NCBI GenBank assembly: GCA_963750475.1
Contig: CAVVQQ010000003.1
Span: 162,523 to 226,522, forward strand
Direction of reading: 5' to 3'
Length of the DNA: 64,000 nucleotides
DNA from: an uncultured Acidobacteriota bacterium
Lineage (GTDB): Bacteria; Acidobacteriota; Vicinamibacteria; Vicinamibacterales; 2-12-FULL-66-21
The notes beneath the pieces were generated by a model. It had not been told where the DNA came from. It made no database searches and saw nothing but the letters and a program-made list of their open reading frames with translations. The position numbers were made by a program, and so were the translations under genes. Within the stretch, counting starts at the first letter, position 1, and each line of letters starts with the position of its first letter. This document shows, piece after piece, positions 2,417 to 29,029 of the stretch.

Positions 2417-2608
<192 letters not shown>

Positions 2609-2625
2609 CCTCAACAGGTTACGTG

Positions 2626-2654
2626 TTGACAACGTGTATACAACGCGCTACAGT
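2626..2654 (+). promoter_or_regulatory. Sigma70-type promoter of the TA/defence operon, with probable antitoxin operator
   Basis: TTGACA (2626-2631), 17 nt, TACAGT (2649-2654); TGTATACA palindrome in the spacer. Confidence 0.7.
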
Positions 2655-2699
2655 TGGACATCGACGTCTAGACATGGGCGTCGCCTAGGGGAGCAAACC

Positions 2700-2984
2700 A
2701 TGGCAGCCACTTCAACCGCCGCGCGGACACGAACCATCAACATCCGCATCGAGGAAGAGCGACGCACGCTCATCGATCGAGCCGCTGAAGCTGCCGGGAA
2801 GGACCGTACGCAGTTCGTTCTGGACGCAGCAACCCGTGAAGCGACAACTGTACTTCTCGACCAGCGGTATTTTCAGCTGGACACGGATGCGTTCGCGAAG
2901 TTCAACGCTGCCCTGGATGCGTCTCCCGCCGAGAACACGCGCCTGCGGGCACTTCTCTCCAGAAAAGCACCCTGGGAGCGATGA
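2700..2984 (+). CDS. DUF1778 family RHH antitoxin (TacA/AtaR-like)
   Basis: INIRIEEERRTLIDRAAEAAGKDRTQFVLDAA...FNAALD...LLSRKAPWE; GGGGAG RBS; ATGA overlap with the GNAT gene. Confidence 0.92.
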   Translation: MAATSTAARTRTINIRIEEERRTLIDRAAEAAGKDRTQFVLDAATREATTVLLDQRYFQLDTDAFAKFNAALDASPAENTRLRALLSRKAPWER

Positions 2985-3499
2985 GTGCGGAAGGATTCAG
3001 CGCTCCAAAGCACCTGACAGCCGAGCACGACGTCAGCGCTTTCGACTCCGGTACGCCTGAACTCGACAACTGGCTGAAACGCCGAGCGTTCGCGAATGAG
3101 GCGCTGGGCACCTCACGGACCTACGTTGTGACGGCTGGGGGACGTGTGGTCGCCTTCTATGCGCTGGCGAACGGCGCAGTGGCTCACAAGGACGTATCCG
3201 CCAAAACGAGGCGCAACATGCCGGACCCAATTCCGGTGATGGTGCTGGCGCGTTTGGCCGTCGATTCTGCCTACCAGAAACAGGGTCTTGGTTCCGCGCT
3301 TCTCAAAGACGCGCTACTCCGCACCATCGCTGTCGCTGAAATTGCTGGCATTCGCGCGGTGCTGCTGCATGCGATGTCAGACGACGCGAAGCGTTTCTAT
3401 GTGCGTGCCGGATTCCACGAGTGTCCGGTCGATCCGATGATGATGATGATCACACTCGCAGAGGTTGAGAAAAACCTCAGCCCGCCCGCCGCGAGCTGA
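2981..3499 (+). CDS. GNAT acetyltransferase toxin (TacT/AtaT-like)
   Basis: HDVSAFDSGTPELDNWL, RRNMPDPIPVMVLARLAVD, QKQGLGSALL acetyl-CoA motif, AKRFY. Confidence 0.92.
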   Translation: MSAEGFSAPKHLTAEHDVSAFDSGTPELDNWLKRRAFANEALGTSRTYVVTAGGRVVAFYALANGAVAHKDVSAKTRRNMPDPIPVMVLARLAVDSAYQKQGLGSALLKDALLRTIAVAEIAGIRAVLLHAMSDDAKRFYVRAGFHECPVDPMMMMITLAEVEKNLSPPAAS

Positions 3500-4577
3500 C
3501 CATGCCCGCAAGCTGCGCTGCTTCGTCGCGATGGCGTTTGGTCACAAAGACAGCGATGCCATTTTCAGTGCTTTGAGAAAGACTCTCGGCCCTCTTGGAG
3601 TCAATGCACAGCGCGTCGATCGCATAGAGCACAACGACAACATCGACACCAGAATAATCTCGGAGATCGAGGCTGCCGACTTGGTCAAAGCCGATCTCAC
3701 TTACGCGCAGCCGTCCGTCTACTTCGAGGCGGGCTACGCTCAGCGGGCGATACCGGTCATCTTCACGGCCAGAAGTGATCACTTCAGGGAACGCGACGAC
3801 GACCCGAACGGCAACCGCCATGTCCATTTCGACCTCAAGATGCGCAACATCATCGCGTGGTCATCGCCGAACGACAGCGCATTCTTGGGACGATTGACGC
3901 GACGTGTTACGAAGGTGATCGCCCCGCTCGTGCGGAGCAGGGTCGCGAGTCAAGCCGCTAAGGAACGCCGCTCAGCGTTCGAACGGCTTTCCACCGTCGA
4001 TAAAGGCGGGGCGCTGTTTGATACAGCTTGGTCTCACTTCAAGCGGGCGCGGTACAGGGAACTCGATCTTCGCAGCAGGCAGGGTGAGAACCTTTCGACC
4101 CGAGCATTCTCGATCCATTCATCGATGCGCCACGGTGCGTTTGTTGCGACGAAGCGAGTCGGCCGAAGATTCAAGTTCGTTTTTTGTCAAACCGTGTTGG
4201 CTGTGCCGCCGAATCTGCGCCACACATATTATCCGTGGCTTGCATTCCCACCGTCCCATGGCGATGGGTTTAATTTCTTCAACGACAAGCCCGAGGAGAT
4301 CGACGAGGACGTTCTTGTGCTCTCGCTCGGCTCTGGTGGCATGAAGCGTTTGCAGAAACAGCTACCTTCCGCGAGGCCTGGATCATTCGAAAACACGCTC
4401 ACGTACAACACCGAAACAGATTTCTCGACCTACAAGCGAAAGACCCCCAGCATTACCAGGCACATCACCTACCACGTTTTCGAATCGGCCGACCGGCTTA
4501 TGCGATTGTCCGAGATTCTCGCGGAGCGTTTCCCGTATCGCGGAACGTCCAAAAAACAGCTGACCGGTAACGCTTAG
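3465..4577 (+). CDS. Nucleoside 2-deoxyribosyltransferase/TIR-like N-domain plus unknown C-domain (true start probably ~3502)
   Basis: CFVAMAF...RVDRIEHNDNIDTRIISEIEAADLVKADLTYAQPSVYFEAGYA...HFDL. Confidence 0.7.
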   Translation: MRKTSARPPRADHARKLRCFVAMAFGHKDSDAIFSALRKTLGPLGVNAQRVDRIEHNDNIDTRIISEIEAADLVKADLTYAQPSVYFEAGYAQRAIPVIFTARSDHFRERDDDPNGNRHVHFDLKMRNIIAWSSPNDSAFLGRLTRRVTKVIAPLVRSRVASQAAKERRSAFERLSTVDKGGALFDTAWSHFKRARYRELDLRSRQGENLSTRAFSIHSSMRHGAFVATKRVGRRFKFVFCQTVLAVPPNLRHTYYPWLAFPPSHGDGFNFFNDKPEEIDEDVLVLSLGSGGMKRLQKQLPSARPGSFENTLTYNTETDFSTYKRKTPSITRHITYHVFESADRLMRLSEILAERFPYRGTSKKQLTGNA

Positions 4578-4593
4578 AGTTTGGTCCCTGCCG

Positions 4594-6339
4594 ATGCATC
4601 TCGACACGCTCAAGATTCAGCGGTTTCGTTCGTGTGCCGATGTGACGGTCCAGTTCCGCAAGGACATGACAGTCCTCGTGGGAGAAAACAATGGCGGCAA
4701 GTCGAATATCGTCGACGCGATCCGCCTGCTGACGCTTCCCCTGAGCGGACGGCGTGAACGTTACGCCGAGGACGAAGACCTGCGTCGTGGAAGCCCCGAC
4801 CCGTCCTTCACGATCGAAGGCGCATTCCGTGGTCTAAGCGACACGCTCAAGGGCCTGTTGATCAGCGCGGTGCCTGATCCGACTACCGACTTGGCGACCT
4901 GGGGGCTCCGGTATCAATGCGGAAGCGTCAAAGTGCGCGGCCGGGTATCGCTGTGGGCAGGTCGCTTCGATACGGCGGAGCCAGAGCGCGGCGCAACCGA
5001 TCTCGTCCGACACGTTTTCTTGCCCCCGCTGCGCGACGCCCGCCAGGCGCTCGGTTCGGGCGCGCCGACTCGAATTGCGGCACTTTTGAAGAACTTCCTG
5101 CTTGAAGGAGAGGAAGCGGGATTTCTTGCGCATGTCAGACGCGCGCCAGCGCAGCACCGCGTCGTCACGGACGTCAATGCGCAAATCAGCGACGCGCTTC
5201 GCGATCTCACGCAAGGCGTTCGCACCCAAGCCACATCCCTCGACTTCACCACCGAGGCGCTGAGCGACGTCGCCCGTGACCTTCGTTTCAAGTTCGGAGA
5301 CGCCGGCATCCCGCTCGAAGACATTGTTTCGTCCGGCCTGGGCTACGCCAATCTTCTTTACATCGCAACCGTCATCGTCGAGCTTGCGAAAGCACGGGAC
5401 GCGGACCTGACGTTGTTCCTCGTCGAAGAGCCGGAGGCGCATCTGCACCCGCAGCTTCAGATGCTCATGCTCGATTTTCTGTTGCTGCAGGCGAATAAGT
5501 CCGCCGAGCGCGCCCCGGTCGCAGGGAAACCCGAAGGCCGGATTCAGATCGTTGTGACGACACACTCTCCGAACCTGACCGCATGGGTCGGTCCTGAGCA
5601 CATTGTGGTCGTTCGCAGCGCACGCGAGCGGCAGGACGGCGTGATGTCCCGTCGCACTGTCGCCATCCCGATCGACAGCTTGGGCATGTCGGATGCGTCG
5701 CTGAAGAAGGTCAGCCGCTATGTCGATGTCACACGTTCGGCGTTGCTGTTTGGCGATCGGGCGCTGCTTGTCGAAGGCATCGCCGAAGCGCTGCTTCTGC
5801 CGGCGATCGCCAAGCTGCATGTCCTGCAAAACGATGCCGCCGGGCTCCAACGATTTCGCGGCGCGGTCTTGGTCGCGATCGACGGGGTCGACTTTTCGCC
5901 CTATGTGGAAGTTCTACTGCGTACTACAAACGGGGCGAGCGTGGCCGATCGGGTTGTCGTGATGACCGACCGCGATCCGCAGCTCGCAGACCGCGCCGTC
6001 GCGCTTTATGCGCTCGCTGACGGCTTCGGCACGAGAGAAAAGCTTGCTGTGTTCACGAACGACGTGACACTCGAGCATTCGCTTTACGCGGCGGGCAACG
6101 CCGACGTGCTTCGGGAGGTATTTCTTGAGCTGCATCCGCGGTCGGCACAGCGATGGGACAACGAGGTCGCGGCTCGTCCCGAAAACGACCGTGCCGCAGG
6201 ATTCGTTGGTCTGATGAAGGCAATGGACGTACGAAAAGGCGACTTCGCGCAGAGTCTTGCCGAACGAATCGTCGCGGGGCGTGCGTTTGTCGTGCCGGAC
6301 TATATCCGTCAAGCCATCGCCCGGATCAGCGAAGCATGA
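4594..6339 (+). CDS. gajA: OLD-family ATPase-TOPRIM nuclease (Gabija GajA-like)
   Basis: Walker A GENNGGKS, LVEEPEAHLHP, TTHSP, TOPRIM LLVEGIAE and TDRD, KGDFAQ. Confidence 0.88.
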   Translation: MHLDTLKIQRFRSCADVTVQFRKDMTVLVGENNGGKSNIVDAIRLLTLPLSGRRERYAEDEDLRRGSPDPSFTIEGAFRGLSDTLKGLLISAVPDPTTDLATWGLRYQCGSVKVRGRVSLWAGRFDTAEPERGATDLVRHVFLPPLRDARQALGSGAPTRIAALLKNFLLEGEEAGFLAHVRRAPAQHRVVTDVNAQISDALRDLTQGVRTQATSLDFTTEALSDVARDLRFKFGDAGIPLEDIVSSGLGYANLLYIATVIVELAKARDADLTLFLVEEPEAHLHPQLQMLMLDFLLLQANKSAERAPVAGKPEGRIQIVVTTHSPNLTAWVGPEHIVVVRSARERQDGVMSRRTVAIPIDSLGMSDASLKKVSRYVDVTRSALLFGDRALLVEGIAEALLLPAIAKLHVLQNDAAGLQRFRGAVLVAIDGVDFSPYVEVLLRTTNGASVADRVVVMTDRDPQLADRAVALYALADGFGTREKLAVFTNDVTLEHSLYAAGNADVLREVFLELHPRSAQRWDNEVAARPENDRAAGFVGLMKAMDVRKGDFAQSLAERIVAGRAFVVPDYIRQAIARISEA

Positions 6340-8099
6340 ATCTCACGCAAGAGCAGCGCGCCGTCGCAGGTCATCCCCGGGGTGCGTTTGTCGAAGCGTG
6401 CCCAGGCGCCGGCAAGACGAGAGCTATCGTGGCGCGTGTTGCGCGCATCGCGCCGACGCTCGGACCCAGCCGCGGCGTTGCGGTGCTGTCGTTCACGAAT
6501 TCCGCGATTGACGAATTCGCGCAGCGTTGCCGTGAGAACGCGCTGGATGTGATTCTGCGTTTCCCGCACTTTGTCAGCACGTTCGACGGATTTCTGCGGC
6601 ACTTCCTGTTTGCGCCTGGCGGCGTAGCCGGTGTCAACGTCAAGCCCGTCGTGGTCGACAGTTGGGACACGCTCGGTATCGATGTCCGATTGGGCGGCCA
6701 GCTCGCATTCCCCGGCGAAGCACCAAGTCTCGACCTCTTCAACGCCGCGGACAACCGGATCGACCCTGCTGGAATCGGAGTGCAGGCGTTGCGCGACCAT
6801 GTCACGCGCAATCGGCTCGCGTATGAGCGCGCGGCGGCTGGTCGACGCGCTGCGCTGCGTAGACGCGGGTATTTCAGCGCTGCCGATGTGCGGGTGGAAG
6901 TGGTGCAGCGGTTCCGCCGCAACGATTGGTCGGATGCGGTGGGTCGCGCACTGTCGGCACGCTTCGCCGAAGTGATTGTGGACGAAGGTCAAGACTGCAA
7001 TCCGCTTGACTGCGACATTCTGACCTGGCTTCGGAATGCAGGCGTGCCTGTGACTGTCGTTGCCGACCCGGACCAGGCGATTTACGGTTTTCGCCACGAC
7101 ACGCCCGCTGACCTTCGTTTGGTGTCAGATGCCTATGCGCCGGCCGACCGTCTCTCGTTAACCGGAAACTTTCGGAGCGGTCCGGCGATCTGCGCCGTGG
7201 CAGCGACGCTGCGCCGGCGCACTGACCCCGATGTGTCGTTGGAGGACGCGGCGCATTTTGCAGAGCCCGTGCGCGTTGTGGCTTATCCGGGACGCACGGC
7301 AACCGGCGGCATCGGTGCATTCTTCGTCGCGCAGTTGCGCGCGGCTGGAATCGCGCCGGCTGACAGCGTCGTGCTCGCGCACGCAAGGCGCAATGCGCTT
7401 CGCGTTTGCGGATCGGGTGCCGAGGAGGATGTGGGGATTTCGAAGGTCGCGCGTCTTGCCGCCGCCATCGGCGTACTGTGGGCGTCCTCGACCTCCTCGC
7501 GCGGCCGCGAACGCGCCCTCCGCGTCGGTGAACGCATGGTTCTCGAACTCATGGGCGCGATTGCGGATGGTGAGGACCCGGTCGCGGCCGCGGAGCGCCG
7601 CAACATTGACCGTCGCTGGTTGCGCCGCAGTGCACTGGCGTTGCTCACCGGATTGCCACGATCGTGTGCGAACACCGACGCGGCCCGAACGGCTTGGGTA
7701 GAGGCACTTCATGGCAGAGTGCGAACTCTGGGACTGACCTATGCTGCTGGCATCACGGAGAGGCGCTACTTTCAGACTCGCGCCGGGGCGACCTGGCACC
7801 GTTGTCTCGCGGATGCGGATCCCGAGGCGCTAACCGCTGCGACGGTTCACGAGGCGAAAGGGCGACAGTATGACGCCGTGTGCCTTGTCATCCCCTCGGA
7901 CGGCCAAGGTTTCACGCGCACTGAACAGCTCGTCCAAGCCTGGGAAAATCGCGTCGACGATGAGGCAAAGCGCGTCGTCTACGTTGGCCTGACACGAGCG
8001 AGGCGCCTGGCGGTTCTGGCCGTACCGGAGGCTGTGCGCGACCGGGTGACCCGAATCCTCGATGCTGCGAACGCGAACTATCAGGCGCACGCGGTCTGA
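6336..8099 (+). CDS. gajB: UvrD-like helicase (Gabija GajB-like)
   Basis: ACPGAGKT, VIVDEGQD, DPDQAIYGFR, TVHEAKG, YVGLTRAR; ATGA overlap with the upstream nuclease. Confidence 0.86.
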   Translation: MNLTQEQRAVAGHPRGAFVEACPGAGKTRAIVARVARIAPTLGPSRGVAVLSFTNSAIDEFAQRCRENALDVILRFPHFVSTFDGFLRHFLFAPGGVAGVNVKPVVVDSWDTLGIDVRLGGQLAFPGEAPSLDLFNAADNRIDPAGIGVQALRDHVTRNRLAYERAAAGRRAALRRRGYFSAADVRVEVVQRFRRNDWSDAVGRALSARFAEVIVDEGQDCNPLDCDILTWLRNAGVPVTVVADPDQAIYGFRHDTPADLRLVSDAYAPADRLSLTGNFRSGPAICAVAATLRRRTDPDVSLEDAAHFAEPVRVVAYPGRTATGGIGAFFVAQLRAAGIAPADSVVLAHARRNALRVCGSGAEEDVGISKVARLAAAIGVLWASSTSSRGRERALRVGERMVLELMGAIADGEDPVAAAERRNIDRRWLRRSALALLTGLPRSCANTDAARTAWVEALHGRVRTLGLTYAAGITERRYFQTRAGATWHRCLADADPEALTAATVHEAKGRQYDAVCLVIPSDGQGFTRTEQLVQAWENRVDDEAKRVVYVGLTRARRLAVLAVPEAVRDRVTRILDAANANYQAHAV

Positions 8100-8326
8100 A
8101 CCGTTTACAGTCCCGCAACGCGAATCGGCGCTGCTGCGCGGTTACTCTAGGATGTGACTCGCTAAGCCCGGAAAGCGGCGGAGATCTTCCCACCGCCGGG
8201 TCAGCTTGACAGAGTTCGGCTGCATTTCGCGGACGATAATCCTCGCCGGCCGGCCGCTCGCGCGTACCGACTCGGCCGTGCAGTCCTCCCGCCACCTCAC
8301 GACACCGCCATCGTATCGACCCAAGA

Positions 8327-8528
8327 GGCGAAATAGTGGCGAAACGCTCGCGATTTACGCCGCTTCTCGAATCAACCAGTTGCGGAAATCGTCCAGTGCG
8401 GCGAGCCAGCTCCGTAAGCTCAACCGAATCAACTGCTTGCAAGATACCGATAGTCGGCAGATTTCCAAGTCGCATTCCTTCATACATTTGAGACGCGGAG
8501 GGCCGCACTGGACGTTCTCCGCAACTGG
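8327..8528. repeat. Junction repeat copy 1 (complete, attP-like)
   Basis: GGCGAAATAGTGGCGAAA; IR-L CCAGTTGCGGAAATCGTCCAGTGCGGC 8376-8402; GAGCCA 8403-8408; IR-R GCCGCACTGGACGTTCTCCGCAACTGG 8502-8528. Confidence 0.95.
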
Positions 8529-8787
8529 CTGAGCGCTCTTCCGCTTGGTGCGAGCCTCCTGCATTCGCCCATCGATGAATCCCCCATGTCGCGTGCACCA
8601 TCAGACAGTGGAACGCTCATCGTTCCTCCTCACTGCTTGGCGCCATCCGTGATTGTTGTTGCTTGGTGTCGTCGTTTGAGTGATCGAGTGTGTGGCTCGT
8701 GCCTTCCGGATTCAGCACACCTGTCGACATACCTTGACCTTCGATGTATCGAGCGAGTAGGGTGACATCTAGAAGGTTGAGGTACCA

Positions 8788-9126
8788 ATGCCCTCTCGAC
8801 GTTTCCCCATTCCGCAAGGCACGCTGGACATGCTGATTCTGCAGATCCTCTCCCTCGAACCCGCCCACGGGTATGGGATCGCGCAGCGCGTGGGCCAGAT
8901 CTCCCGCTCGATGGTCCAGATCAATCAGGGCTCGCTTTATCCCGCCCTTCATCGCCTGGAGCAGAAACGCTGGCTCCGCGCCGAGTGGAAACCGTCCGAA
9001 ACCGGCCGGGACGCCAAGTTCTACGCGCTGACTTCTTCTGGACGCCGTCAGCTCACCCTCGAGAAGGAGAGCTGGGCGCGCCTGTCCGTTGCCGTCGACC
9101 TGATCTGTGGCGAGGGCAGCCGATGA
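8788..9126 (+). CDS. PadR family transcriptional regulator (acidobacterial type)
   Basis: QGTLDMLILQIL, HGYGIAQR, QGSLYPALHRLE, KFYALT. Confidence 0.93.
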   Translation: MPSRRFPIPQGTLDMLILQILSLEPAHGYGIAQRVGQISRSMVQINQGSLYPALHRLEQKRWLRAEWKPSETGRDAKFYALTSSGRRQLTLEKESWARLSVAVDLICGEGSR

Positions 9127-11832
9127 CACCTTTGTTCAACTGGTTTCGCCGACGGTCCCTCGAGCGCGATCTCGACCGTGAGCTCCAATATCACGTCGAA
9201 CGCCGCGTGGCCGATCTCACCGCCACCGGTATCACCAAGGCCGAGGCGCGCCGCTTAGTCGCCGTCGAACTTGGCCTCGACAAGGTGCGCGAGGAGGTTC
9301 GCGATGTGTGGCTCAGTCGCTGGTTTCGCGATTTCCTCTACGATCTCCGCTTCTCCGTCCGGGCATTCTTCCGCAGCCCTGGCTTCACCGCGGCCACCTT
9401 GCTCTCGCTCTCACTCGGAATTGGCGCGACGACGGCCATCTATTCACTCGTCGACCAGCTGATCCTCCACGCACTCCCAATCCGCGAGCCCGAGCGCCTC
9501 GTCCTCGTCGACTGGGAAGGCGAACATGTGACCGGCGGCTTTGGTTCCTTCAACCTGATGTCGTACCCGTTCTGCCGAGACGCCCAGCATCAGACCGGTG
9601 TCTTCGACGGCGTCGTCTGCCGCGCCCAGGTCGGTTCCGTGAATTTCTCGGCCGGCAGCGATCCACGACCGATCACCGCCGAACTCGTCTCCGGCAGCTA
9701 TTTCCCGGTCCTCGGCATCGAGCCCGCGCTCGGCCGCGTCCTCGAACCGGACGATGATGGCGCCCCCGGTGCTGGGCAAGTCGTCGTGCTCTCCTACGGC
9801 TTCTGGCAGGCGCAGTTCGGAGGCGCTGTTGATGTCGTCGGCCGGAAGGTCTCGATCAACAACCACCCGATGACGATCGTGGGCGTGGCGCCCGCACGCT
9901 TCCGGGGCGTGGATGTAGGTGCCGTGCCAGCCCTCTGGATGCCCGCGTCCATGTACGCACAGGCTATCCCTGGCGTCGAAGATGTCTTCGACCGTCCGAC
10001 TCGCTGGATGCAGATCCTCGGCCGGCTCCGTCCCGGACTCACCGCTGCGCAGGCGCAAGCCGGCCTTCAGCCCTGGTTCAAGACATGGCTGGAGGAGAAC
10101 GCGCGCCGCCCCGGCTTTCCCGTCATCACCGCCGAGCGGCACCGACGCTATCTCGCGTCAATACTGAGTCTCACCCCCGCACCGCAAGGCTTTTCACCTT
10201 TGCGGCGCAGCCTGTCGCAACCGCTCTGGATGCTCTTCGCCGCGACGATCCTTCTGCTCGGCCTCGCCTGCCTGAATGTCGCCGGTCTCTTCCTCGCCCG
10301 CGGCTCCGCACGGGGCCGAGAGATTGCGACTCGCCTCGCCCTGGGTGCGTCGCGCGGCCGCGTTGGCCGCCAGCTCCTCGCCGAGAGCGTGCTGCTTGCG
10401 GTCGTCGGCGGTGCGCTCGGCGTCGCCCTTGCGCCGCTCGCGATGCGCGTCCTTTTGAGCTTTCTCCCGTACGACGTCACCGAGAACGCCCTCAGCGCCG
10501 GCATCAACCTGCGACTCCTCGTCTTCGCGTGTCTGGCGAGCCTCGTCGCCGGCCTGGCCAGCGGGCTCGCGCCCGCCCTCCATGCTGGTCGCGACAGCCT
10601 GGCCACTGCGCTCCGTGAGCGCGGAGGTACGCAGTCCGGCGGCATTCGCCTCCGCAAATGCATCGTCACCTTGCAGGTGGCGTTGTCCCTGATTCTCGTG
10701 GTGGCTGCCGCTCTGTTCCTACGCTCCCTGTCCGGTCTGATCGCCAAAGGCCCCGGATTCGACACCGCCAGCCTGGTATCGTTCGGCCTTGCCCCACACA
10801 AGAACGGGCATACGCCAGCGGACTCCAGCCGCCTCGTCCGCCGCATCGATGCCGAGGTCCGCGCCTTACCGAACGTCAGTTCCTCGGCCGTCGTGCGCTA
10901 CGCTTTTCTCACGGGCGGGAGCTGGGACAACCCATTCACCATCCAGGCCGACCGCCGCATCGTGACCGATCGAGACGTCCACGAGAACGCGGTCAGCCCC
11001 GGTTTCTTCTCCACACTCGGCATCCACCTCGTCGCCGGCCGCAACTTCGACGAGCGCGACTCCTTGCCTCCGGGCGAGTCCGGCCGCCGCCGCTCCGCCA
11101 TCGTAAACGAGGCGTTTGTCCGCCGAGTACCTTCCGGGCGTCGCTCCCATCGGCGTGCGAATTGGGGAGGGCTCCGGCCCCGACGTTCAGCCGGAAACCT
11201 TCATCGTCGGCGTCGTGACGGACTTCGTCTATCGCAACCTCCGCGATCACTCCGAGCAGATTCTCTTTCCGATCTTCGAGGGCCACGACGAGTTCGACAC
11301 CGCCTTCTACGTCAAGGTTCGCGGCACGCCCGAGCAGGCCTTCCAGTCCATTCGCAACGTCGTCCTTGCTGCCGACCCACAATTGCCGCTCCTGAGCTTC
11401 CGGACCCTCGACAATCAGGTCAACCGCTCGCTCACGACCGAACGCATGCTGGCGGCGGTCTCCGGCGGGTTCGGCGCGCTTGCACTCTTGCTGTCGTTGA
11501 TCGGTCTCTACGGTGTAATGTCGTTCGTCGTCACCCGCCGCACACGTGAGATCGGCCTCCGCCTAGCTCTTGGGTCCACCGTCGGCTCGGCGGTCCGGCT
11601 CATTCTTTACGATGCCGTCACTATGATCGCGGTCGGCGTCGCCATTGCACTCCCGTGCATCGTCGCGCTCGGCCGAGTCCTCCAGTCCCAGTTGTTCGGC
11701 CTCACGGCGACCGACCCCCAGACTGTCGCCGCCGCCACTCTGCTCCTCACCGCCGGCGCGCTCGTGGCGGCGTTCATCCCCGCCTGGCGGGCTTCGAAGG
11801 TGAATCCCACGGACGCACTTCGGCTGGAATAA
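9123..11832 (+). CDS. ADOP-type duplicated MacB/FtsX-like ABC permease (frameshift ~11120)
   Basis: DLDRELQYH, RSPGFT, LGIGATTAIYS, REIATRLALGA; second half RTREIGLRLALG...PAWRASKVNPTDALRLE. Confidence 0.9.
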
Positions 11833-11838
11833 AACGCC

Positions 11839-12595
11839 CAAGCGAGCGCGCATCAAGACTGAGGCCGTGCTCATCAAACACTCTGAGCACAGCAGGGCTT
11901 CGAAGGCCTCGTTGTTCGGGCCTCGCTCACGTAGGCCGTCGCCTCACTGGGTTCTTCACGAGCGAGTCGGCCAGGCGTACTTTGATGAACGCCTGCCGGG
12001 CCGACGGGCTTCTTGATCGAATCTCACGCAGCAGGTCCACGGGAAGTCGACATTGCCGCGTTGAACCGCCGCCCAGGGCTGACGGCCTTGGCAAGATCCA
12101 CATGACCGACAACAGGTGAACGCCGGCGTCGTGCATGGCGTCAAGTTGGGCGGCCGGGAGTGCCCTAGTCTTGAAGGTACGCTGCCTTTCTTCATCCCGT
12201 CTTCGCCTGAGGGAGATGATCCGGATGCGATCGCCCCCTATGGTGATGAACGCCGACCACATCACCTGCCGGTTCGCCCCATGACCGGGGTCCGAGGTTC
12301 ATCGAGCGAGCGGGCCTGGATCTCAAGCCGGTCGGGTCGCTCCACAAGCCTGAGCGCCGAGGAGGTCGATGTGGTGCTTCTTGAGATTGGCTGCGCTGGG
12401 CGACATTCGAACAGCTGTGAGGTTCCGTCATTGAGCTGCGTTCATTCGTGAAGGAGGGCCGGTTGGGCGTGTGAAGCACGCCGATGAGTGGACGTGGAGA
12501 CGCGCCTCGGGAGTGATGGTTCGCAGAGTCCGGATCGGTGCAGGAAGGCGAAATAGTGGCGAAACGCTCGCGATTTACGCCGCTTCTCGAATCAA
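11839..12595 (-). pseudogene. Decayed BrnT/BrnA-type TA module, duplicate of 32348-33201
   Basis: Co-linear with the 32-kb copy; fragments WSAFITIGGDRIRIISLRR and LPAAQLDAMHDAG; brnT 5' end and promoter deleted, many indels. Confidence 0.85.
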
Positions 12596-12744
12596 CCAGT
12601 TGCGGAAATGGTCCAGTGCGGCGAGCCATACCGTAAGAGCAATAAATCAACTACTTGCACGGCCCGTATTTTTCCGCTCTCCTAAGTCTCACTCCCTCAG
12701 ACATTTGTGACGCACAGGCCGCACTGGACGATGTCCGCAACTGG
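12547..12744. repeat. Junction repeat copy 2 (complete)
   Basis: Left part nearly identical to copy 1; GAGCCA 12623-12628; AATCAACTACTTG 12645-12657; right arm 12717-12744. Confidence 0.95.
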
Positions 12745-12903
12745 CTGGACAGCTAACCGCCGGCGCCCAGAAGTTCAGTCGAAAGCGAGTGACGTCGAGA
12801 GTTAGTGATGCGAGCACTGGGGAGATCTCGTATGACGGGTCGTCGCGCTCGCCATCACTCACACGTCCCACGCATGTCGACACCGACTGCGCGGCCTGGC
12901 CGT

Positions 12904-12947
12904 GGCCTCGATAACACGTCCAGAACGAGCACATCGACTAGTCCAGT
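12904..12947 (-). promoter_or_regulatory. Putative MocR-type operator, copy A
   Basis: 29/44 ungapped identity (hand count) to 15544-15587; CTGG direct repeats; just upstream of the mocR-like gene. Confidence 0.55.
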
Positions 12948-12973
12948 CGTTCCAAATTGAAGTACAACATGGC

Positions 12974-14444
12974 ATGGCCCGTTGGGAGGTGACATTCGCG
13001 CTCGAGCGGCGACGTGGCGTGCCGCTGTTTCAGCAAATCGCACGTGCGGTGACGAAAGACATCCGACGTCGTCGCTTGCGGCCAGGTGATCGGTTGCCCG
13101 GTCACTCGAACGCTGGCGCGCACACTCGGCGTACAGCGGCTGACCGTAGTTGCCGCCTTCGACGAGCTCGTCGCGGAAGGCTGGATCGTCAACCAGCCCG
13201 CGCGCGGCGCCTTCGTCTCGACCGATCTGCCAGATCCGCCGCCGAGGCGAATGACAGCCTGGGAGCTCCCCGGTGCCATGGCTGAACGGACCAGCTTCGA
13301 GTTGCTCCCTGCACCGAGAGCCGAACGCCCGTACGAGATACCGCGCGGCAGCTTACTGTTCGCGCCGAGCCGGCCGGACGTGCGTCTCGCGCCGGGCATC
13401 GTGATTGGCCGCGCACTGCGACGTGCGATGGGCCACAAGTCTGGCGCGCTCCTCGCCTACGGACCGAGCGAGGGTCATCCCCGTCTTCGTCAGGCCGTGT
13501 CGACGATGCTGGCGTCAACCCGAGGCCTGGCGGCTGGCCCGGAGAACGTTTGTATTACGCGCGGCAGCCAGATGGCACTGGCGCTGTTGTCAAAGACCTT
13601 TCTTCGTCCCGACGACATCGTCGTGGTCGAAGCACTGGGGTATCGATCTGCGTGGGAGGTATTTCGGCAGGTTGGCGCGAAGGTGATCGGCGTGCCCGTT
13701 GACAACGATGGAATCGATATAGACGGTTTGGAACGTGTCATTACTCAACAGCGTGTGCGAGCTGTTTACGTCACACCGCATCACCAATATCCGACCACCG
13801 TGACCATGTCGGCCGGACGACGGCTGAGGCTCATGGAGCTCGCGCGTGCCCACCGATTTGCGATTATCGAGGATGACTACGACCATGAATTTCACTATGA
13901 CGGGCGGCCGGTGTTACCCCTCGCGAGCGCCGACCGGTTCGGCCTGGTGATCTACGTGGGGACGTTCTCCAAGGTGCTTGCCCCTGCGTTGCGGTTGGGG
14001 TACGTCGTCGCGCCAGTTCCACTTATTGAGCGCATTGCGGCCCACCGATCGTTGATCGACATGCAGGGGGACCAGGTGCTCGAGTACGCGATCGCGGAAC
14101 TACTCGAGGAAGGCGAAATTCAACGACACATTCGCCGTGTCAGACGCGAGTACCACGCGCGCCGGGATACATTGGTGGCAGCGCTTCGCGACCAGCTTGG
14201 TGCGCGCGTCTCGTTCGATGTCCCGGCCGGCGGCATCGCACTCTGGCTGAAGGCCGCGAAAGGCTTTGATGTGGAGCACTGGGCTGCTCGTGCACAGGAT
14301 CGCGGCGCTATGATGGTGACCGGGGCCGCCTTTAGTCTGGATGGCAGGCCTCAACCATTCGTGCGTCTCGGATTCGCGGCGCTGAACCGACAAGAACTCG
14401 ACGAAGGCGTGCGACGGCTGGCCGCGAGCGCTCGCGGCAAGTGA
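12974..14444 (+). CDS. MocR/GabR family GntR-aminotransferase regulator (frameshift ~13100)
   Basis: PLFQQIARAV...LRPGDRLP/TRTLARTLGV HTH; YVTPHHQYPT, IIEDDYDHEFHY, GTFSKVLAPALRLGY. Confidence 0.92.
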
Positions 14445-14531
14445 ACGACCGGCCTTCGAAATTCCGGTCGAGGAGAATTCGCGCGGCAAATAACGGAACC
14501 ATGCGACCGTCGCGGCTTTGGGAGAACGAGA

Positions 14532-14849
14532 TCATTGCGGCGGCCCGTGTGTTGCGGCGACATCGAAGTGCGCGGCGCGATCGTCCCAGCGGCTCAAGTA
14601 GCGGCGGCGCTCTTCCGGTACGACCGCCGCCTCGCAATCTGCGCCGGCAATCGCGCGGACGTCATCGAGGGAATCCCAGAGCAGGATGGTAATGAACTCG
14701 ACTTCCGCGCCTGCATCATGCCGCAGCAGATAGCTTCCGCGGTAACCCTTCTTCCGGCTCACGCCAGGCAGCAGTTCCGGCTTCAGCATCGCTTCATAGG
14801 CCTCCGCGTTCGCCGGGGTCGTCCACCCATGCCAGACTCTCGCAACCAT
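14532..14849 (-). CDS. Antibiotic biosynthesis monooxygenase-like protein
   Basis: MVARVWHGWT...GYRGSYLLR...EFITILLWDSLD. Confidence 0.8.
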   Translation of the reverse strand: MVARVWHGWTTPANAEAYEAMLKPELLPGVSRKKGYRGSYLLRHDAGAEVEFITILLWDSLDDVRAIAGADCEAAVVPEERRRYLSRWDDRAAHFDVAATHGPPQ

Positions 14850-14926
14850 AGTCGCCTTTCTCGACCGCTCACATCCCTCGAGAACGTTGGCGCGACGTGG
14901 AATGTGTCGTTCGACTTGCTTGTGAT

Positions 14927-15472
14927 CTACAACGCAAGGTAACGCTCATGCACGACTCGTGTGTGGTGAATCGCGTGTCCCGCTGCCACATGGGCCAGAG
15001 CCCGAACCGAGAACGGGTGGCCACTTGCTATACCACGGCGCAGCCAGGCTTCTGACGGCAGACTCTTGAAGAATGCGACGGTTGCGCTTCGGACGATATG
15101 AAAATGCTCTACGTCCGTCGACCACGGGCGCTCGGAGGCGCGCGCCGCGTTGGCGGCGACTTCCTGATCGAAGCTCGGGAGCGCCGCGTCGAAGCCGCGC
15201 GCGAACCACCAGGCGCGGAAGACGAAGAGGCGTTCGGCGTCGATGACGTGCGAGAGGGTATCAGCAATGCTCCATTTGCCTGGCTGATAGGTCCTCTTCG
15301 ACTGGCGCACCGTGATCCCGCCGAAGAAGGTCACGAGCGAGTCGCATTGAGCCGCGAGTATGTCGCAGATGTTTCCGGCCGGGACGAGCCTGATGTAATT
15401 GAAGTAGTAGTCCGCTGCTTCGGATCGGTCCGGCCGGGTCACAAGGATATTGGCCAGCTCGGTGTCGTTCAT
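14927..15472 (-). CDS. DinB family protein
   Basis: YQPGKWSIADTLSHVIDAERLF, LPSFDQ, AGHAIHH. Confidence 0.85.
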   Translation of the reverse strand: MNDTELANILVTRPDRSEAADYYFNYIRLVPAGNICDILAAQCDSLVTFFGGITVRQSKRTYQPGKWSIADTLSHVIDAERLFVFRAWWFARGFDAALPSFDQEVAANAARASERPWSTDVEHFHIVRSATVAFFKSLPSEAWLRRGIASGHPFSVRALAHVAAGHAIHHTRVVHERYLAL

Positions 15473-15543
15473 ACGCGCTCCGAGGGTACTGCGGCCCATG
15501 CCATCGATGAAGTGCCAGTTTTCAGACGAACACTAGGCCGGCA

Positions 15544-15587
15544 ACTGGCCTACTCTAGTTCACCATTCTGGATCTGTGCTCACGGCC
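15544..15587 (+). promoter_or_regulatory. Putative MocR-type operator, copy B
   Basis: ACTGGCCTA...TTCTGGATCTGT...GGCC upstream of the 15659 operon; matches copy A. Confidence 0.55.
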
Positions 15588-15658
15588 GGTTTCGATGGAC
15601 GATCCAGAGGTTGGCGGTTCGAAGCCAAGAACGACATCAACAAGCAGACGGCAGCTAT

Positions 15659-16318
15659 ATGACACGCACACGGATACACAACCTGTTCATCTCGCTGGAC
15701 GGTTTCGGCACCGGTGAGGGCCAGAGCGCGGACGCGCCCATGGGTCACGCCGGCAGACGGCTGGCGGAATGGATGTTCGCCACCCGATTCGGTGCCGCGA
15801 TGCTGGGGCGCCCTGGTGGCAGCGCCGGCGCCGATGACGCGTTTGCCCAGCAGTCGGGGCCCGGTATCGGCGCCGAGATCATGGGTGCAAATAAGTTCGG
15901 TCCGCCCGGGTGGCAGGACGACGCCGGCTGGAAGGGCTGGTGGGGCCCCAAGCCGCCCTTCCACACGCCGACGTTCGTGCTCACTCATCGGCCGCGGCCC
16001 TCGATCGGGATGGAGGGCGGGACCACCTTCCATTTCATCGACGCCTCACCGGTCGAGGCGCTTGACGTCGCCCAAAAGGCAGCAGGCGGGAAGGACGTCC
16101 GGATCGGCGGAGGGCCGACGGTTGCGCGCGACTTCATCGCCGCGGGCCTCGTCGACCACATCCACCTGGTCCAGGTGCCGATCGTGCTCGGCCGCGGCGT
16201 GCGACTGTGGGACGGCCTCGAAGCGCTCGAGGCGAACTACGCCATCGAGGCGGTCTCGACGCCTTCCGGCGTCACGCACCTCACCTTCACGCGGATGGCC
16301 CGGCCAACCCAGCCATAG
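15659..16318 (+). CDS. Dihydrofolate reductase/RibD C-terminal family protein
   Basis: ISLDGFG, GAEIMGANKFG, WKGWWGPKPPFHTPTFVLTH, DVRIGGG. Confidence 0.9.
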   Translation: MTRTRIHNLFISLDGFGTGEGQSADAPMGHAGRRLAEWMFATRFGAAMLGRPGGSAGADDAFAQQSGPGIGAEIMGANKFGPPGWQDDAGWKGWWGPKPPFHTPTFVLTHRPRPSIGMEGGTTFHFIDASPVEALDVAQKAAGGKDVRIGGGPTVARDFIAAGLVDHIHLVQVPIVLGRGVRLWDGLEALEANYAIEAVSTPSGVTHLTFTRMARPTQP

Positions 16319-16344
16319 TCCTTGACCAGAGGCCTTCCTCCACG

Positions 16345-17016
16345 ATGATTCCGACCATGCGCAGCAAGCTCCGCCGCCTCCCCGAGCGCGGTACGCACGA
16401 ATGGACCGCCGTCACAGACATCCTGGATGCGGCGTTCCTCGCCTTTGTCGGGTTCGCGGTCGAGCATCAGCCATTTGTCATCCCCACGCTCTACGGACGG
16501 CAGGGCGAAACCCTCTATCTTCACGGGTCCGCGGCAAGCCGGATGATGCGAGAGCTCTCCGCCGGCGTGCCCACGTGCGTGACGGTTGCACTGGTGGACG
16601 GAATCGTCCTGGCGCGCTCGGCGTTTCACCATTCGATGAACTATCGATCGGTCGCCGCATTCGGGACGGCGAAGAAAATTGAGGACGCCGGCCAGAAGAG
16701 AGCCGCACTGAAGGTGATCTCCGATCACGTGGTGGCGGGGCGCTGGCAGGACGTACGACTGCCGACCGATCAAGAGCTGAAAGCGACGACGGTGCTCGAA
16801 TTCGTGGTCGAAGAGGCTTCGGCGAAAGTCCGAACCGGCCCGCCGAGCGACGACGAAGCCGACTACGGGCTGCCGGTGTGGGCAGGGGTGCTGCCGCTTG
16901 CATTGCACTCGTCCGCGCCGCAGGCTGATGGCCGTTTGCGAGCGCACATTCCCGAACCCGCCTATTTGGCCGATTACGACAGGCGTTTCCGCAGCGCAGA
17001 CGGGAGTGACGAATGA
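16345..17016 (+). CDS. Pyridoxamine 5'-phosphate oxidase-like flavin-binding protein
   Basis: LYLHGSAASRM, DGIVLARSAFHHSMNYRS, VWAGVLP. Confidence 0.88.
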   Translation: MIPTMRSKLRRLPERGTHEWTAVTDILDAAFLAFVGFAVEHQPFVIPTLYGRQGETLYLHGSAASRMMRELSAGVPTCVTVALVDGIVLARSAFHHSMNYRSVAAFGTAKKIEDAGQKRAALKVISDHVVAGRWQDVRLPTDQELKATTVLEFVVEEASAKVRTGPPSDDEADYGLPVWAGVLPLALHSSAPQADGRLRAHIPEPAYLADYDRRFRSADGSDE

Positions 17017-17790
17017 AGTGGCTGCTGCTCCTCATACTCTGGTTAACCGTTCCAGTGTCTCCACAGCAACATGCGTTCGAGGTCATCGAACTGCGGCGAT
17101 ACACGATCAAGCCGGGACAACGAGAGCACTTCGCGCGGTACTTCGAGACGTACTTCCCGGAAGCCTTCCAGCAGTTGGGTGCCCTGGCCGTAGGACAGTT
17201 CTTCGAGCGTGACAAGAAAGACCACTTCCTGTGGCTGCGCGGGTTCCATGACATGGATGAACGGGCGAGGGCGAATGCGAGCTTCTACTACGGACCGCTG
17301 TGGAAGGAGCACCGGTCGACACTGAACGCGCTGATTGACGACAGCGACAACGTCCTGCTGCTTCGTCCCGTCAGCGCGGAGCGGCCGGTGACGGTTCTGC
17401 CGGCGGTCGACCCGGTCGAGGACCCGGACGGTGCGCGTGGAATAGCCGTCGCGATGATTTACCCGGTGCAGGCAGGCCGTGCGGAGGAGTTCGCGCGGGA
17501 CGCCGACCCCACGTTCGCGCAGTTTCGGGCTGCGGGTGTACGCAGAAGCCGGATTGTTGTGCACCCTCGATGCCGCCAACAATTTTCCTCAGTTGCCGAT
17601 CAGAACCGACGGCCCCTTCGTGGTGTGGATCGGAGTCATGCCGGACGAACCGGCGCTCACGCGAACTTTCCTGCCCCTGGACGAAAGCAGTCGAGCACGC
17701 CTGGTGCAATCGCCGCTACTCAACGGGCCGATCGAGCGGGTGGTCCTTACGCCGACGAAGCGCTCGAGGCTGCGCTGGATACCACAATGA
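17013..17790 (+). CDS. NIPSNAP family protein (frameshift ~17545)
   Basis: VIELRRYTIKPGQRE, FYYGPLWKEHR, DSDNVLLLRP; C-terminus NNFPQLPIR...LTPTKRSRLR in ORF 17479..17790. Confidence 0.78.
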
Positions 17791-18566
17791 ACAACTTTGA
17801 AGGCAAGCGGGCTCGCTTTCGCGCGCTGCATGAACACGGGTGCTTTGTCATCCCAAATCCATGGGACGTGGGCAGCGCGAAGCACCTCGAGCGACTGGGT
17901 TTCGCAGCCCTGGCGACCACCAGTTCGGGGGCCGCATGGGCGCGTGGACGGGAAGACGGGCAGCTGTCATGCCAGGAAATGCTCGCGCACTTGCGCGAAA
18001 TCTGCGCCGCCACGCTTCTGCCGGTGAACGCCGACTTCGAAGCGGGCTACGCCGCCGACGTGGAGGAACTGTGGAGATACGTCGCTGCCGCGGTCGACAC
18101 CGGTATCGCCGGTCTGTCGATCGAGGACTTCAGCCACGGCGTGCGATACGAAATTGGCGAAGCTGCTGAGCGTGTGAGGGGAGCGAAAGAGGCGATCCGC
18201 TCGACGGGCGCCGACGTGCTACTGGTTGCTCGCGCCGAAGGGTTCATCCGCGGCAACCCGGACCTGGATGACACCATTGCCCGGCTGCAAGCGTATAGCC
18301 GCGCGGGCGCGGATTGCCTTTACGCGCCCGGCGTTAGGGAGCTTTCCGCGATCGATCAGATCGTGAAAGCCGTGGCGCCGAAACCGCTCAACGTGCTGAT
18401 GCTCGGGTCCGCGTTCACCGTCGCGGACCTGGCCGACAGGGGCGTTCGGCGTGTCAGTGTGGGCGGCGCGCTCGCCGCTGCTGCGTGGGCGGCCTTCAGA
18501 GACACGGCGGCGACGTTGCGCAACCACGGAACCATGCCGCCGAGACCCGCGGGAGGCCTGTCGTGA
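17787..18566 (+). CDS. Isocitrate lyase/PEP mutase family protein
   Basis: IPNPWDVGSA, LATTSSG, PVNADFEAGY, GADCLYAPG, RRVSVGG. Confidence 0.9.
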   Translation: MNNFEGKRARFRALHEHGCFVIPNPWDVGSAKHLERLGFAALATTSSGAAWARGREDGQLSCQEMLAHLREICAATLLPVNADFEAGYAADVEELWRYVAAAVDTGIAGLSIEDFSHGVRYEIGEAAERVRGAKEAIRSTGADVLLVARAEGFIRGNPDLDDTIARLQAYSRAGADCLYAPGVRELSAIDQIVKAVAPKPLNVLMLGSAFTVADLADRGVRRVSVGGALAAAAWAAFRDTAATLRNHGTMPPRPAGGLS

Positions 18567-19327
18567 TGCGAGGCAGGCACCTGTACGGCGCTGCGTCGAT
18601 CGTGCTCGCGATGATCGGGTTTGCGACCGCAGGTTTTGCCACCAACTGGCATCCGGTTCCCGACGGCATTCCGTACCGTCGCCTGCTGGCGTACGCCGCG
18701 GCCGCGCTGATGTTCGCCTCAGGCGCCGGGCTGCAATGGCGAAAGACCACGCGCGCCGCCCTGCTGCTTTCCGCAGCGGTCTACACCCCGTTTGCGTGGC
18801 TCTGGCTAAGACGGGTGATCGGCTTTCCGCAATTGTCCGGGACGTGGTCGGGATTCGCCGAACAACTCGCTCCGGTGATCGCCGCATTGTTCTCCTACGT
18901 CCGCGTCGCTCCGACGAATGCGCGATGGCTGCCGAAAGCGGAGACGGCGTGTCGCGGCCTGTTTGGACTGTGCGTGGTCGGACTGGGGCTGGCACACTTC
19001 TTCGCGCTGGCGCTCACCGCCAGGCTGGTACCAAAGTGGATTCCGCCAGGGCAGCGTTTCTGGGCGGCGGCAACCGGGGTCGCGATGGTTCTTGCCGGCG
19101 TATCCATCGCCGTTGACGTGCAGTCGGCTCGCGCGGCGAAACTGCTGACCGTGCTGCTCGCGCTGTTCGGGATATTCGTGTGGGTACCGAGGGTGTTCTT
19201 CAATGCTCGCCAACCGATGGCGTGGGGCGGCCTCGCGATCACGATGCTGGTTGGCGGCGCAGCGTCGATGGTCGCCGACGGCTTGCATCGGGGAAGGCCG
19301 GCGGCGCACGGCACAGTGAAGCCTTAG
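18566..19327 (+). CDS. DoxX-like membrane protein
   Basis: Multi-TM; GLAHFF, LVPKWIPPGQRFWAAATG. Confidence 0.65.
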   Translation: MRGRHLYGAASIVLAMIGFATAGFATNWHPVPDGIPYRRLLAYAAAALMFASGAGLQWRKTTRAALLLSAAVYTPFAWLWLRRVIGFPQLSGTWSGFAEQLAPVIAALFSYVRVAPTNARWLPKAETACRGLFGLCVVGLGLAHFFALALTARLVPKWIPPGQRFWAAATGVAMVLAGVSIAVDVQSARAAKLLTVLLALFGIFVWVPRVFFNARQPMAWGGLAITMLVGGAASMVADGLHRGRPAAHGTVKP

Positions 19328-19355
19328 ATGCCTGGCGCGCAAATCAGGAGCAGCA

Positions 19356-21786: not shown

Positions 21787-21832
21787 ATGGCTATATTCGC
21801 AAATGGAAATGTATGTGTCAAGCGGCGAATTA

Positions 21833-22130
21833 ATGAAAGTTCGCTGCACCATGGCAATGCTGCAGTGTCTCGATCGGCCGCACCGCCTGGCGTACATCGT
21901 TGGCGAGATCCTCGACGTCTCGGGACCGGAGGCCGCGGAGATCCTGCAAATCACGTTTGACGCGTTTCGCAAGCAGTTGCAGCGCGCACGCGCAGAGGTG
22001 GTGGCGTTCACGCGCGCACATTGCGGGCTGGTGTCCGACGAGGCGGCGTGCGCATGTCACCGCCGCGTCAAAGCGGCCCGCGCTGCCGGGCGGGCTGATG
22101 AATCGCGTCTCGATTTTGCAAATCACGGGT
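21833..22130 (+). pseudogene. C-terminal fragment of an ECF sigma factor (region 4 plus Cys-rich tail)
   Basis: CTMAMLQCLDRPHRLAYIVGEILDVSGPEAAEIL...FRKQLQRAR...HCGLV...CACHRRV; region 2 absent. Confidence 0.7.
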
Positions 22131-29021: not shown

Positions 29022-29029
29022 GGGATGCC

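Follow-up and report, generated by a model that had tools for sequence, protein, structure and literature searches.

A repeated junction behind tRNA-Asn in a Vicinamibacterales genome is likely a seam between recombinase-less cassettes made by a large serine recombinase

The window analysed here is a 64-kb stretch of DNA from the genome of an uncultured member of the Vicinamibacterales (Acidobacteriota), the assembly of which spans 5.2 Mb at a marker completeness of 57%. Near its left end lies a plus-strand tRNA-Asn(GTT) gene (2417–2491; called by ARAGORN, 73 bits against Rfam tRNA), and behind this gene a unit of ~200 nt recurs at 8327–8528, 12547–12744, 22193–22392 and 32092–~32290, with a 50-nt stub at 33151–33201. 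A repeat search of the window resolves the left 83 nt of the unit as a five-copy direct-repeat family (starts at 8326, 12546, 22192, 32091 and 33151), and the ~200-nt unit was not found elsewhere in the 5.2-Mb assembly. A 205-nt query detected the unit in 49 of 101 related genomes as a marker of cassette boundaries behind a tRNA gene; the window's own genome (G000) is counted in this tally, as is the unpublished G022, on which no other result rests. At least 133 stretches in public genomes carry the exact word, and most of the 80 matches listed are metagenome-assembled genomes (MAGs) of Acidobacteriota/Vicinamibacterales. An earlier sequence-only reading had likened the copy at 8327–8528 to a lambda-type attP. 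We consider it likely that this repeat is instead a seam between recombinase-less cassettes stacked behind tRNA-Asn, and that it arose by integration through a large serine recombinase (LSR) rather than a lambda-type integrase.

The features that the sequence-only reading had listed in this copy are all present where it placed them: the direct repeat GGCGAAA-TAGT-GGCGAAA (8327–8344), a left box AATCAACCAGTTG (8370–8382) taken for a binding site of integration host factor (IHF), a left inverted repeat (IR-L, 8376–8402), the core GAGCCA (8403–8408), a right box AATCAACTGCTTG (8427–8439) and a right inverted repeat (IR-R, 8502–8528), 25 of whose 27 bases are complementary to IR-L. The seam is attR-like, and its parts are an LSR tail, a tRNA-type core and the left end of the next cassette. 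The direct repeat lies in the stretch downstream of the tail's stop codon (8327–8354). The severed LSR 3' end follows on the minus strand (8355–8408; 17 codons, WLAALDDFRNWLIREAA, and a stop) and contains the left box, IR-L and the core, which here forms the codons W-L. The right half, designated B' (8409–8528, plus strand), is the left end of cassette 2; it holds a GTAAG word, the A/T-rich IHF-like right box and IR-R, with ACTTGC/CAAGT words flanking a variable stretch.

Alignment of the copies shows that B' also stands directly 3' of tRNA-Asn (2492–2609, plus strand; IHF-like box 2510–2522, inverted 27-mer 2583–2609), and that the last six bases of the tRNA (2486–2491), the left half of attB, are the core GAGCCA itself. 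The array is thus ordered tRNA, core, B', cassette 1, then left arm, core and B' ahead of cassette 2 and again ahead of cassette 3, a further seam, cassette 4, and finally a left arm and core joined to another flank. The six nucleotides GAGCCA are common to the tRNA and all tails, as expected of a short attP/attB crossover core. Arrays adjoin tRNA-Asn in five more relatives (G014, G045, G001, G015 and G031). G+C content is 58–66% across 2–39 kb, compared with 65–74% in the rest of the window.

On the minus strand, the core, IR-L and the left box read WL-AALDDFRNWLIREAA-stop over 17 codons. From all loci, 131 distinct tail copies were collected, with up to 4 mismatches tolerated in the 27-mer and up to 1 in TGGCTC. 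Because the copies were selected on the 27-mer, its own invariance is uninformative; the six codons that follow it lie outside the selection criteria. Variability at codon positions 1/2/3 in these six codons was 0.49/0.05/0.49 for Leu (TTG versus CTC), 0.22/0.18/0.35 for Ile, 0.16/0.20/0.55 for Arg, 0.13/0.24/0.46 for Glu, and 0.17/0.16/0.57 and 0.18/0.21/0.35 for the two Ala codons. With the Leu TTG/CTC switch excepted, third positions therefore vary at 0.35–0.57 and positions 1 and 2 at 0.05–0.24. A stop stands at codon 18 in 96 of the 131 tails (TAA 62, TGA 27, TAG 7), and the peptide LIREAA is found in 66. Upstream of W-L the copies are unrelated (variability 0.43–0.73, with stops nearby), so conservation starts exactly at the core. 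These patterns point to a severed LSR tail kept under coding constraint at the far end of the element. The left arms of the window are four such orphaned LSR tails plus one stub. Neither of two minus-strand open reading frames (ORFs) across this region, of 229 aa (7912–8601) and 69 aa (8355–8564), was accepted as a gene; in the 69-aa frame conservation is confined to the last 17 codons.

Two elements of the lambda-type description find little support in this comparison. The left box consists of the codons N-W-L-I, and it matches the IHF consensus WATCARNNNNTTR in just 17 of the 131 copies because GATCAAC and GATGAGC are common synonymous spellings. The GGCGAAA-TAGT-GGCGAAA-type direct repeat, proposed as a pair of arm sites, occurs in its exact form in 11 of 126 distinct tail copies and is therefore a feature of a sub-lineage.

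The intact enzymes to which such tails belong are encoded in relatives. Searches started from an L090-type stretch, and continued with the full protein, found LSRs of 498–515 aa with Resolvase, Recombinase and Zn-ribbon domains; LSRs of this composition are associated with the arrays of relatives (L209/L257, L262, L261 and others), but not with that of the window's genome. All intact LSR ORFs read …G(D/N)WL and then the reverse complement of the tRNA gene. The switch to antisense tRNA falls exactly at TGGCTC, which places the recombination site (attP) within the LSR gene itself, in its 3' end. The LSR ORF crosses attL into the antisense tRNA at L205, L209, L259, L260, L261 and L262. Fusions to antisense tRNA-Asn are seen at L262 and L264, with a partial tRNA copy at L261 and in the LSR remnant of L205, and fusions to antisense tRNA-Gln at L257, L259, L260, L265 and L269. 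At three loci (L090, L056 and L086) the tail is instead continuous with LSR C-terminal domains, reading …SNSTFDRGSLSPTYIKPFD…GDWL-AALDDFRNWLIREAA, and in the protein P0033 the tail-type ending …GDWLTSLDDFRNWLIR… is likewise continuous with the LSR. The endings of 74 database LSR homologues comprise 36 of antisense tRNA-Asn, 11 that are tRNA-Gln-like, 4 of tail type (P0033 among them) and 23 others or fragments. On a single contig of G172, a tRNA-Gln-fused LSR and its own tail lie 17 kb apart. LSR remnants of differing length stand behind some tails in relatives (L061, L070, L056 and L090). The crossover is located at the tRNA CCA end.

Several further observations concern the wider family. Sister LSR clades fused to antisense tRNA-Gln(CTG) have the tail form …RDDFRNWLFSAA, the LSR at L263 adjoins tRNA-Asp/Val, and …YEFRNFL… is the ending of homologues further removed, so that the tail motif persists when the target changes. 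At L206/L264 (G084:C3:97666-100576) an IS481-like transposase gene interrupts the tRNA-Asn-type LSR, which is also frameshifted, at ~10 nt from the core; the 14-kb element of G084 still terminates in a tail joined to a flank of a second type, B''.

Turning to the right half of the unit, 53 distinct B' copies align from the core through the inverted 27-mer as a module of ~120 nt. Its conserved blocks are a TAAG word, the A/T-rich CAATAAAATCAA, ACTTRC, TAAGTC, TCAG, TTGYG and the 27-mer. ACTTRC and TAAGTC enclose a variable stretch, which in some copies forms a hairpin with differing upper stems. The right box fits the IHF consensus in 38 of the 53 copies, 17–19 nt past the core and with 28 different N4 fillings (0.07 expected by shuffling), so that the prediction of an IHF-like box better conserved than its flanks held in the larger alignment. 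Within the 64-kb window WATCARNNNNTTR occurs eight times on both strands, seven of them in the repeats (2510, 8370, 8427, 12590, 12645, 22236 and 32135), and the recurrence of the right-hand box at 2510, 12645 and, with one mismatch, 22294 is as the sequence-only reading had described it. The inverted 27-mer lies 95–103 nt from IR-L in all 22 seams with both arms (one locus being counted in both orientations); its similarity to the tail stops exactly at its last base, and the remainder of the tail is not copied. Among 66 type-B copies, 26 stand directly behind tRNA-Asn without IR-L, 22 behind a tail and 18 behind other sequence. The second conserved flank type, B'', is found at seam 4 of the window and at the attR of the LSR-bearing G084 element, and stands behind tRNA-Asn in G017.

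By inspection, a GTTG word lies 21–25 nt left of the core in both tail and tRNA, and a CAAC word 22–25 nt right of it in B'. Because CAAC in B' mirrors the GTTG of the left half-site at equal distance from the core, the right box may be the outer word of the putative right half-site of the LSR; the LSR-body side of the site has no GTTG/CAAC-type word. The tail 27-mer (8376–8402) also resembles, again by inspection, the T-arm/acceptor end of tRNA-Asn as a diverged look-alike with GTTGC, CCAG and GAGCCA in register and the T-loop replaced, and it contains an internal direct repeat CCAGT(T)GCGG. This likeness would be expected if one enzyme binds both. Two other roles were considered and rejected: the inverted 27-mer as an LSR operator or internal inverted att copy (none at ≤8 mismatches around or inside the LSR elements of G051, G274, G165, G172, G215, G326 and G084), and B' as a universal native tRNA-Asn flank (carried by only 5 of 28 tRNA-Asn loci with a readable flank).

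The cassettes between these junctions are modular units, and the seams are sharp to the base. The core, B' and first gene pair of the window (2483–3503) are 89% identical to G014 L054 9624–8600, there behind a recombinase tail and not a tRNA. B' copies within the array are 72–79% alike, compared with 82–87% to copies in other genomes, and the tails at 8326 and 12546 are 99% alike. We compared cassette 1 with assembled contigs from four metagenome runs, which belong to four studies (root, rhizosphere, soil and bioreactor). Contigs of all four runs covered ~2.6–8.4 kb with 2–3% other letters, and their homology breaks exactly after 2491 and after 8408; run X1 holds eight different continuations past 8408. 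One X12 contig joins the tail and core (8408) to cassette 1 B' at 2581. Cassette 2 (8.5–12.5 kb) was hardly covered in these runs, from which nothing is concluded.

Taken as a mechanism, a split-tail LSR would integrate elements at tRNA-Asn. Integration at the tRNA CCA end swaps out the last 15 LSR residues and leaves the native tail at the far end of the element. The 27-mer beside the core would be the putative P-type half-site of the LSR, with the tRNA-Asn T-arm/acceptor end that it resembles as the B half-site. Cassettes would be non-autonomous units of B' module, cargo and tail, which either an LSR acting in trans or recombination from one repeated seam to another has moved or stacked. For the B' box at +17 to +30, the candidate roles are an IHF site and the outer motif of the LSR right half-site. 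The array of this genome would now lack a helper, with partial decay at seams 3 and 4 and in the stub. The structure fits non-autonomous att-flanked cassettes, and a unit occurs at other array positions in other genomes; mobility is a prediction. The proposal of functional recombination sites under selection is kept in part: the junctions are recombination seams under selection, in 49 of 101 genomes, with a conserved right box, and the site at 8327–8528 is not the attP of a live element.

A number of observations weigh against LSR-made seams, or are left aside by this account. The central gap is that canonical attP × attB recombination alone gives no run of tail-core-B' seams headed by tRNA-core-B'. 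We speculate that B'-led circles might have been inserted between the tRNA and a resident LSR through an excision-type reaction, which would fit the internal tail-core-LSR-remnant junctions at L061, L070 and L056. No cognate LSR was found in the assembly, the only two LSRs being 30% identical and on another contig; any present mobility of the array would require a helper from outside this assembly, which is 57% complete. Among the tails listed in the public scan, 15–17 of 101 continue into B' and 3 into LSR remnants, while the remaining tail flanks also occur right behind tRNA-Asn in other genomes. B' and the inverted 27-mer are absent from the LSR elements of G172 and G084 and from the stretches of G326, G165, G274 and G215. 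The right box matches the IHF consensus very well, and to our knowledge serine integrases are not known to need IHF. LSR integration does not explain the role of B', or of an inverted 27-mer ~97 nt from the core. The X12 joint cannot tell a circle from another array position, because its tail side has only 33 nt, and recombination throughout is deduced from sequence.

Three other explanations were weighed against this one. Were the unit a lambda-type attP or attP-like junction, GAGCCA would be the overlap, the boxes would bind IHF, and the GGCGAAA repeats and 27-mers (two CCAGT(T)GCGG words each) would be arm sites. The retention of the right box at a fixed offset with a free N4, the 27-mer spacer held at 95–103 nt, the three HU/IHF-family genes of the genome and the 44–51-nt partial tRNA-Asn 3' copies in relatives' arrays all agree with such a site. 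The required enzyme is not where this explanation would have it: the window contains none of the genome's 15 PF00589 matches, the nearest lying ~167 kb past the window's end, and no PF00589 gene was found near the arrays of five relatives (G014, G010, G043, G045 and G001). Given also that the left box and IR-L are LSR tail codons, that the GGCGAAA words are confined to so few copies, that identity with the tRNA is merely 6 nt at the CCA end, and that every B'-led cassette in the window has an LSR tail as its partner end, we judge a tyrosine-integrase origin very improbable. That the 27-nt inverted repeats act by folding, as an integron-attC-like single-stranded site, a structured RNA or a bidirectional terminator, is more improbable still. 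As single-stranded DNA the pair does fold well (z = −4.9; none of 200 shuffles folds as well), arm spacing is constant, and in some B' copies an inner hairpin with differing upper stems is closed by ACTTRC/GYAAGT. Yet across the 22 seams there were 45 one-arm deviations from consensus and 0 compensated changes, which speaks against the hairpin that the sequence-only reading had allowed for, and 26 of the 66 type-B copies have no IR-L to pair with. RNAalifold on 49 aligned B' copies returned no shared structure on either strand beyond a trivial 3–4-bp stem inside the 27-mer, and Rfam (E ≤ 1, 2300–34000) matched only the tRNA. With DNA parameters, inner B' hairpins averaged z = −0.55 (10 of 51 below −1.64), the three window copies folding weakly, and cassettes of 4–10 kb with several genes are unlike those of integrons. 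Two related candidates were also rejected. Pairing of the whole right box with a downstream TAAGTnnTTGAT block is a subgroup feature, as it is significant in 11 of 59 copies only, and a correlation of arm states between IR-L and IR-R at an F/V codon (5 of 5 V-V) is not significant because V is the common state of IR-R.

A purely fossil array is possible, if unlikely. Each cassette would once have been a complete LSR element that lost its LSR, the seams would be functionless, and B' would be an old tRNA-Asn flank spread by homologous recombination. Decay is plain to see at seams 3 and 4 and in the stub at 33151, the assembly lacks a cognate LSR, remnants of varied length stand behind tails at L061, L070, L056 and L090, and flanks behind tRNA-Asn in one genome recur behind tails in others. 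Against this, conservation of the B' 27-mer and box spans families of the order whereas the remainder of B' has drifted to ~72–79% identity, B' copies in one array are mutually diverged and closer to copies of other genomes, and one B'-cargo unit sits at different array positions in different genomes. LSR-made seams between recombinase-less cassettes thus remain our preferred explanation. A bolder extension of it, which we hold only tentatively and think rather improbable, is that recombinase-less cassettes parasitise split-tail LSRs in trans and have B' as their dedicated left end, with the inverted half-site, 95–103 nt from the crossover, and an IHF-type bend between the two making the seams competent. 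If true, the tRNA-Asn locus of Vicinamibacterales would be an integron-like platform on which a serine recombinase assembles modules for defence, toxin-antitoxin and transport functions, and the seam would be the first serine-integrase site with an accessory site and a host bending protein.

The remaining seams of the window vary in preservation. Seam 2 (12547–12744) has its tail coding sequence at 12575–12628 on the minus strand, with IR-L at 12596–12622, core at 12623–12628, and B' at 12629–12744 (box at 12645, IR-R at 12718–12744). Seam 3 (22193–22392) is decayed, with a 1-nt insertion in the tail before the core (22270–22275), one mismatch in the box at 22294 and a 2-nt deletion in IR-R (22368–22392). 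Seam 4 (32092–32290) retains IR-L (32141–32167), followed by the core variant GAGCCG (32168–32173) and the B'' flank, in which the 27-mer position is degenerate. The truncated remnant of a tail flank at 33151–33201 consists only of bases beyond the stop codon and abuts a flavin adenine dinucleotide (FAD) monooxygenase gene (33203–34390). This gene, taken as 33203–34480, is 96% identical to L100 2676–3953 of another Vicinamibacterales MAG, where it lies ~130 nt from a recombinase tail. The low-GC stretch continues to ~39 kb, and 36584–37290 matches, at 94% identity, cargo that adjoins a seam in L113; the island probably continues past 33.2 kb with eroded seams. Past the recognisable array, the low-GC stretch also encodes a 421-aa ORF (37417–38682) with the catalytic domain of a Tle1-like phospholipase of the type VI secretion system (E 1.9e-60).

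Pfam profiles were run on the ORFs of 1–42 kb and identified no recombinase among those tested. Cassette 1 (2610–8326) encodes a TacA-like antitoxin with a GNAT protein, a 370-aa ORF without assignment, an OLD/AAA_15 ATPase and a UvrD-like helicase. The TacA/GNAT pair occupies 2586–3499, and at 4594–8099 a 581-aa OLD-family ATPase (AAA_15/AAA_21 plus TOPRIM) adjoins the UvrD-like helicase (648-aa ORF), which together look like a Gabija-type defence pair. Cassette 2 (8529–12546) carries a PadR regulator, a MacB/FtsX-type permease with a broken frame and a small gene pair (11839–12400). The permease gene, which lies behind that of PadR, is broken across two frames (8985–11549 and 11116–11832); this may be a sequencing error and not decay. 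The small pair belongs to a two-gene module present in two copies (11839–12400 and 32348–32916; 83–94% identical), each just left of a recombinase tail; by eye it is like a BrnT/BrnA-type toxin-antitoxin pair, an unverified label, and the four ORFs compared with Pfam had no match. Cassette 3 (12745–22192) encodes a MocR-like regulator, DinB, RibD_C, a PNP-oxidase-like protein, a phosphoenolpyruvate (PEP) mutase, a hydrolase, AHSA1 and ArsR, and cassette 4 (22393–32091) kdpD/kdpABC and a two-component pair.

In several relatives, partial copies of the tRNA-Asn 3' end of 44–51 nt lie inside the arrays (for example G010:C3:1237737-1237787; G035:C6:102982-103031 and 118503-118552; G081:C4). Partial tRNA 3'-end copies are the usual mark of tyrosine-integrase islands, and these are probably the footprint of a second element class on the same tRNA gene, probably of that kind.

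The array shares features with several known systems. In the lambda attP intasome, a ~200-bp site lies behind the core, with an IHF box between the core and distal repeated words. The seams have the same size, an IHF-consensus box between core and distal words, and fixed spacing, but here there is no tyrosine integrase, one arm is LSR coding sequence and conservation of the left box does not follow the IHF motif. Integron attC sites are imperfect inverted repeats of 60–150 nt, used by a tyrosine recombinase as a folded single strand and separating cassettes of about one gene. Like integron arrays and CALINs (clusters of attC sites lacking integron integrases), the present array consists of promoter-poor cargo units split by imperfect inverted-repeat sites, often with no recombinase nearby; it falls outside the attC/CALIN definition in that its arms do not covary and its cassettes are long and multi-gene. 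The Streptococcus ICESt3 and CIME elements, an integrative and conjugative element (ICE) and cis-mobilizable elements (CIMEs), are reportedly tyrosine-recombinase systems in which cis mobility with a neighbouring ICE was shown. CIMEs and site-specific accretion likewise stack att-flanked, recombinase-less cargo in tandem at one gene, whereas the cassettes described here are known from sequence alone.

Closer parallels exist for an attachment site within integrase coding sequence. The primary papers on the myxophage Mx8 are said to be those of Tojo (1996) and Magrini (1999). As summarised in a review, Mx8 attP lies inside the int gene, and integration gives IntP a new 3' end as IntX (PMC6070905); Mx8 Int is, going by that summary, a phage tyrosine recombinase, whereas the enzyme here is an LSR of small cargo islands and the window has orphaned tails only. 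The ssrA islands of Dehalococcoides are the nearest match in the sections of the report drawn on here (McMurdie et al. 2011, PMC3146451). They stand in tandem behind the transfer-messenger RNA (tmRNA) gene, and the 540-aa serine recombinase DsiB adjoins attL with an ORF that overlaps attP/attL. The authors suggest that DsiB may be complete, and fully functional, only on the circle or where it lies downstream of an island that provides the 3' fragment, and they term some islands without an integration module possible cis-mobilizable elements (PMC3146451). Both systems place tandem islands behind one t(m)RNA gene, with a reverse-strand serine recombinase of ~540 aa beside attL reading into the antisense RNA gene. 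As far as those sections go, the differences are the target (here the tRNA-Asn CCA end, or tRNA-Gln in a sister clade, in Vicinamibacterales of the Acidobacteriota), an identity block of 6 nt here and 20 there, a severed tail that is here a strongly conserved 15-residue peptide, and a 120-nt left-end module with an IHF-like box and inverted 27-mer, which many cassettes carry here and which those sections do not describe. Full-text literature searches, covering neither subscription papers nor supplements, returned no description of the acidobacterial arrays or the B' module. Of interest here are the tail-swap LSR design and the unexplained B' module; the split-tail layout itself is already known from Dehalococcoides.

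These data describe a tRNA-targeting LSR clade with its attachment site in its own last codons, such that the free and the integrated form give the enzyme different tails. The tail swap could be a built-in directionality switch, which would be of practical interest for genome engineering with serine integrases. A testable LSR frame replaces a plausible but wrong lambda-type intasome frame, and one unexplained piece is isolated, the conserved 120-nt module in which an IHF-consensus box is combined with a mirrored putative recombinase site at fixed spacing. For the biology of the order, the arrays mean that this soil order of Acidobacteriota stacks multi-gene cassettes behind a single tRNA gene; those of the window bring with them a Gabija-like defence pair, toxin-antitoxin pairs, a kdp operon and a PadR-permease pair.

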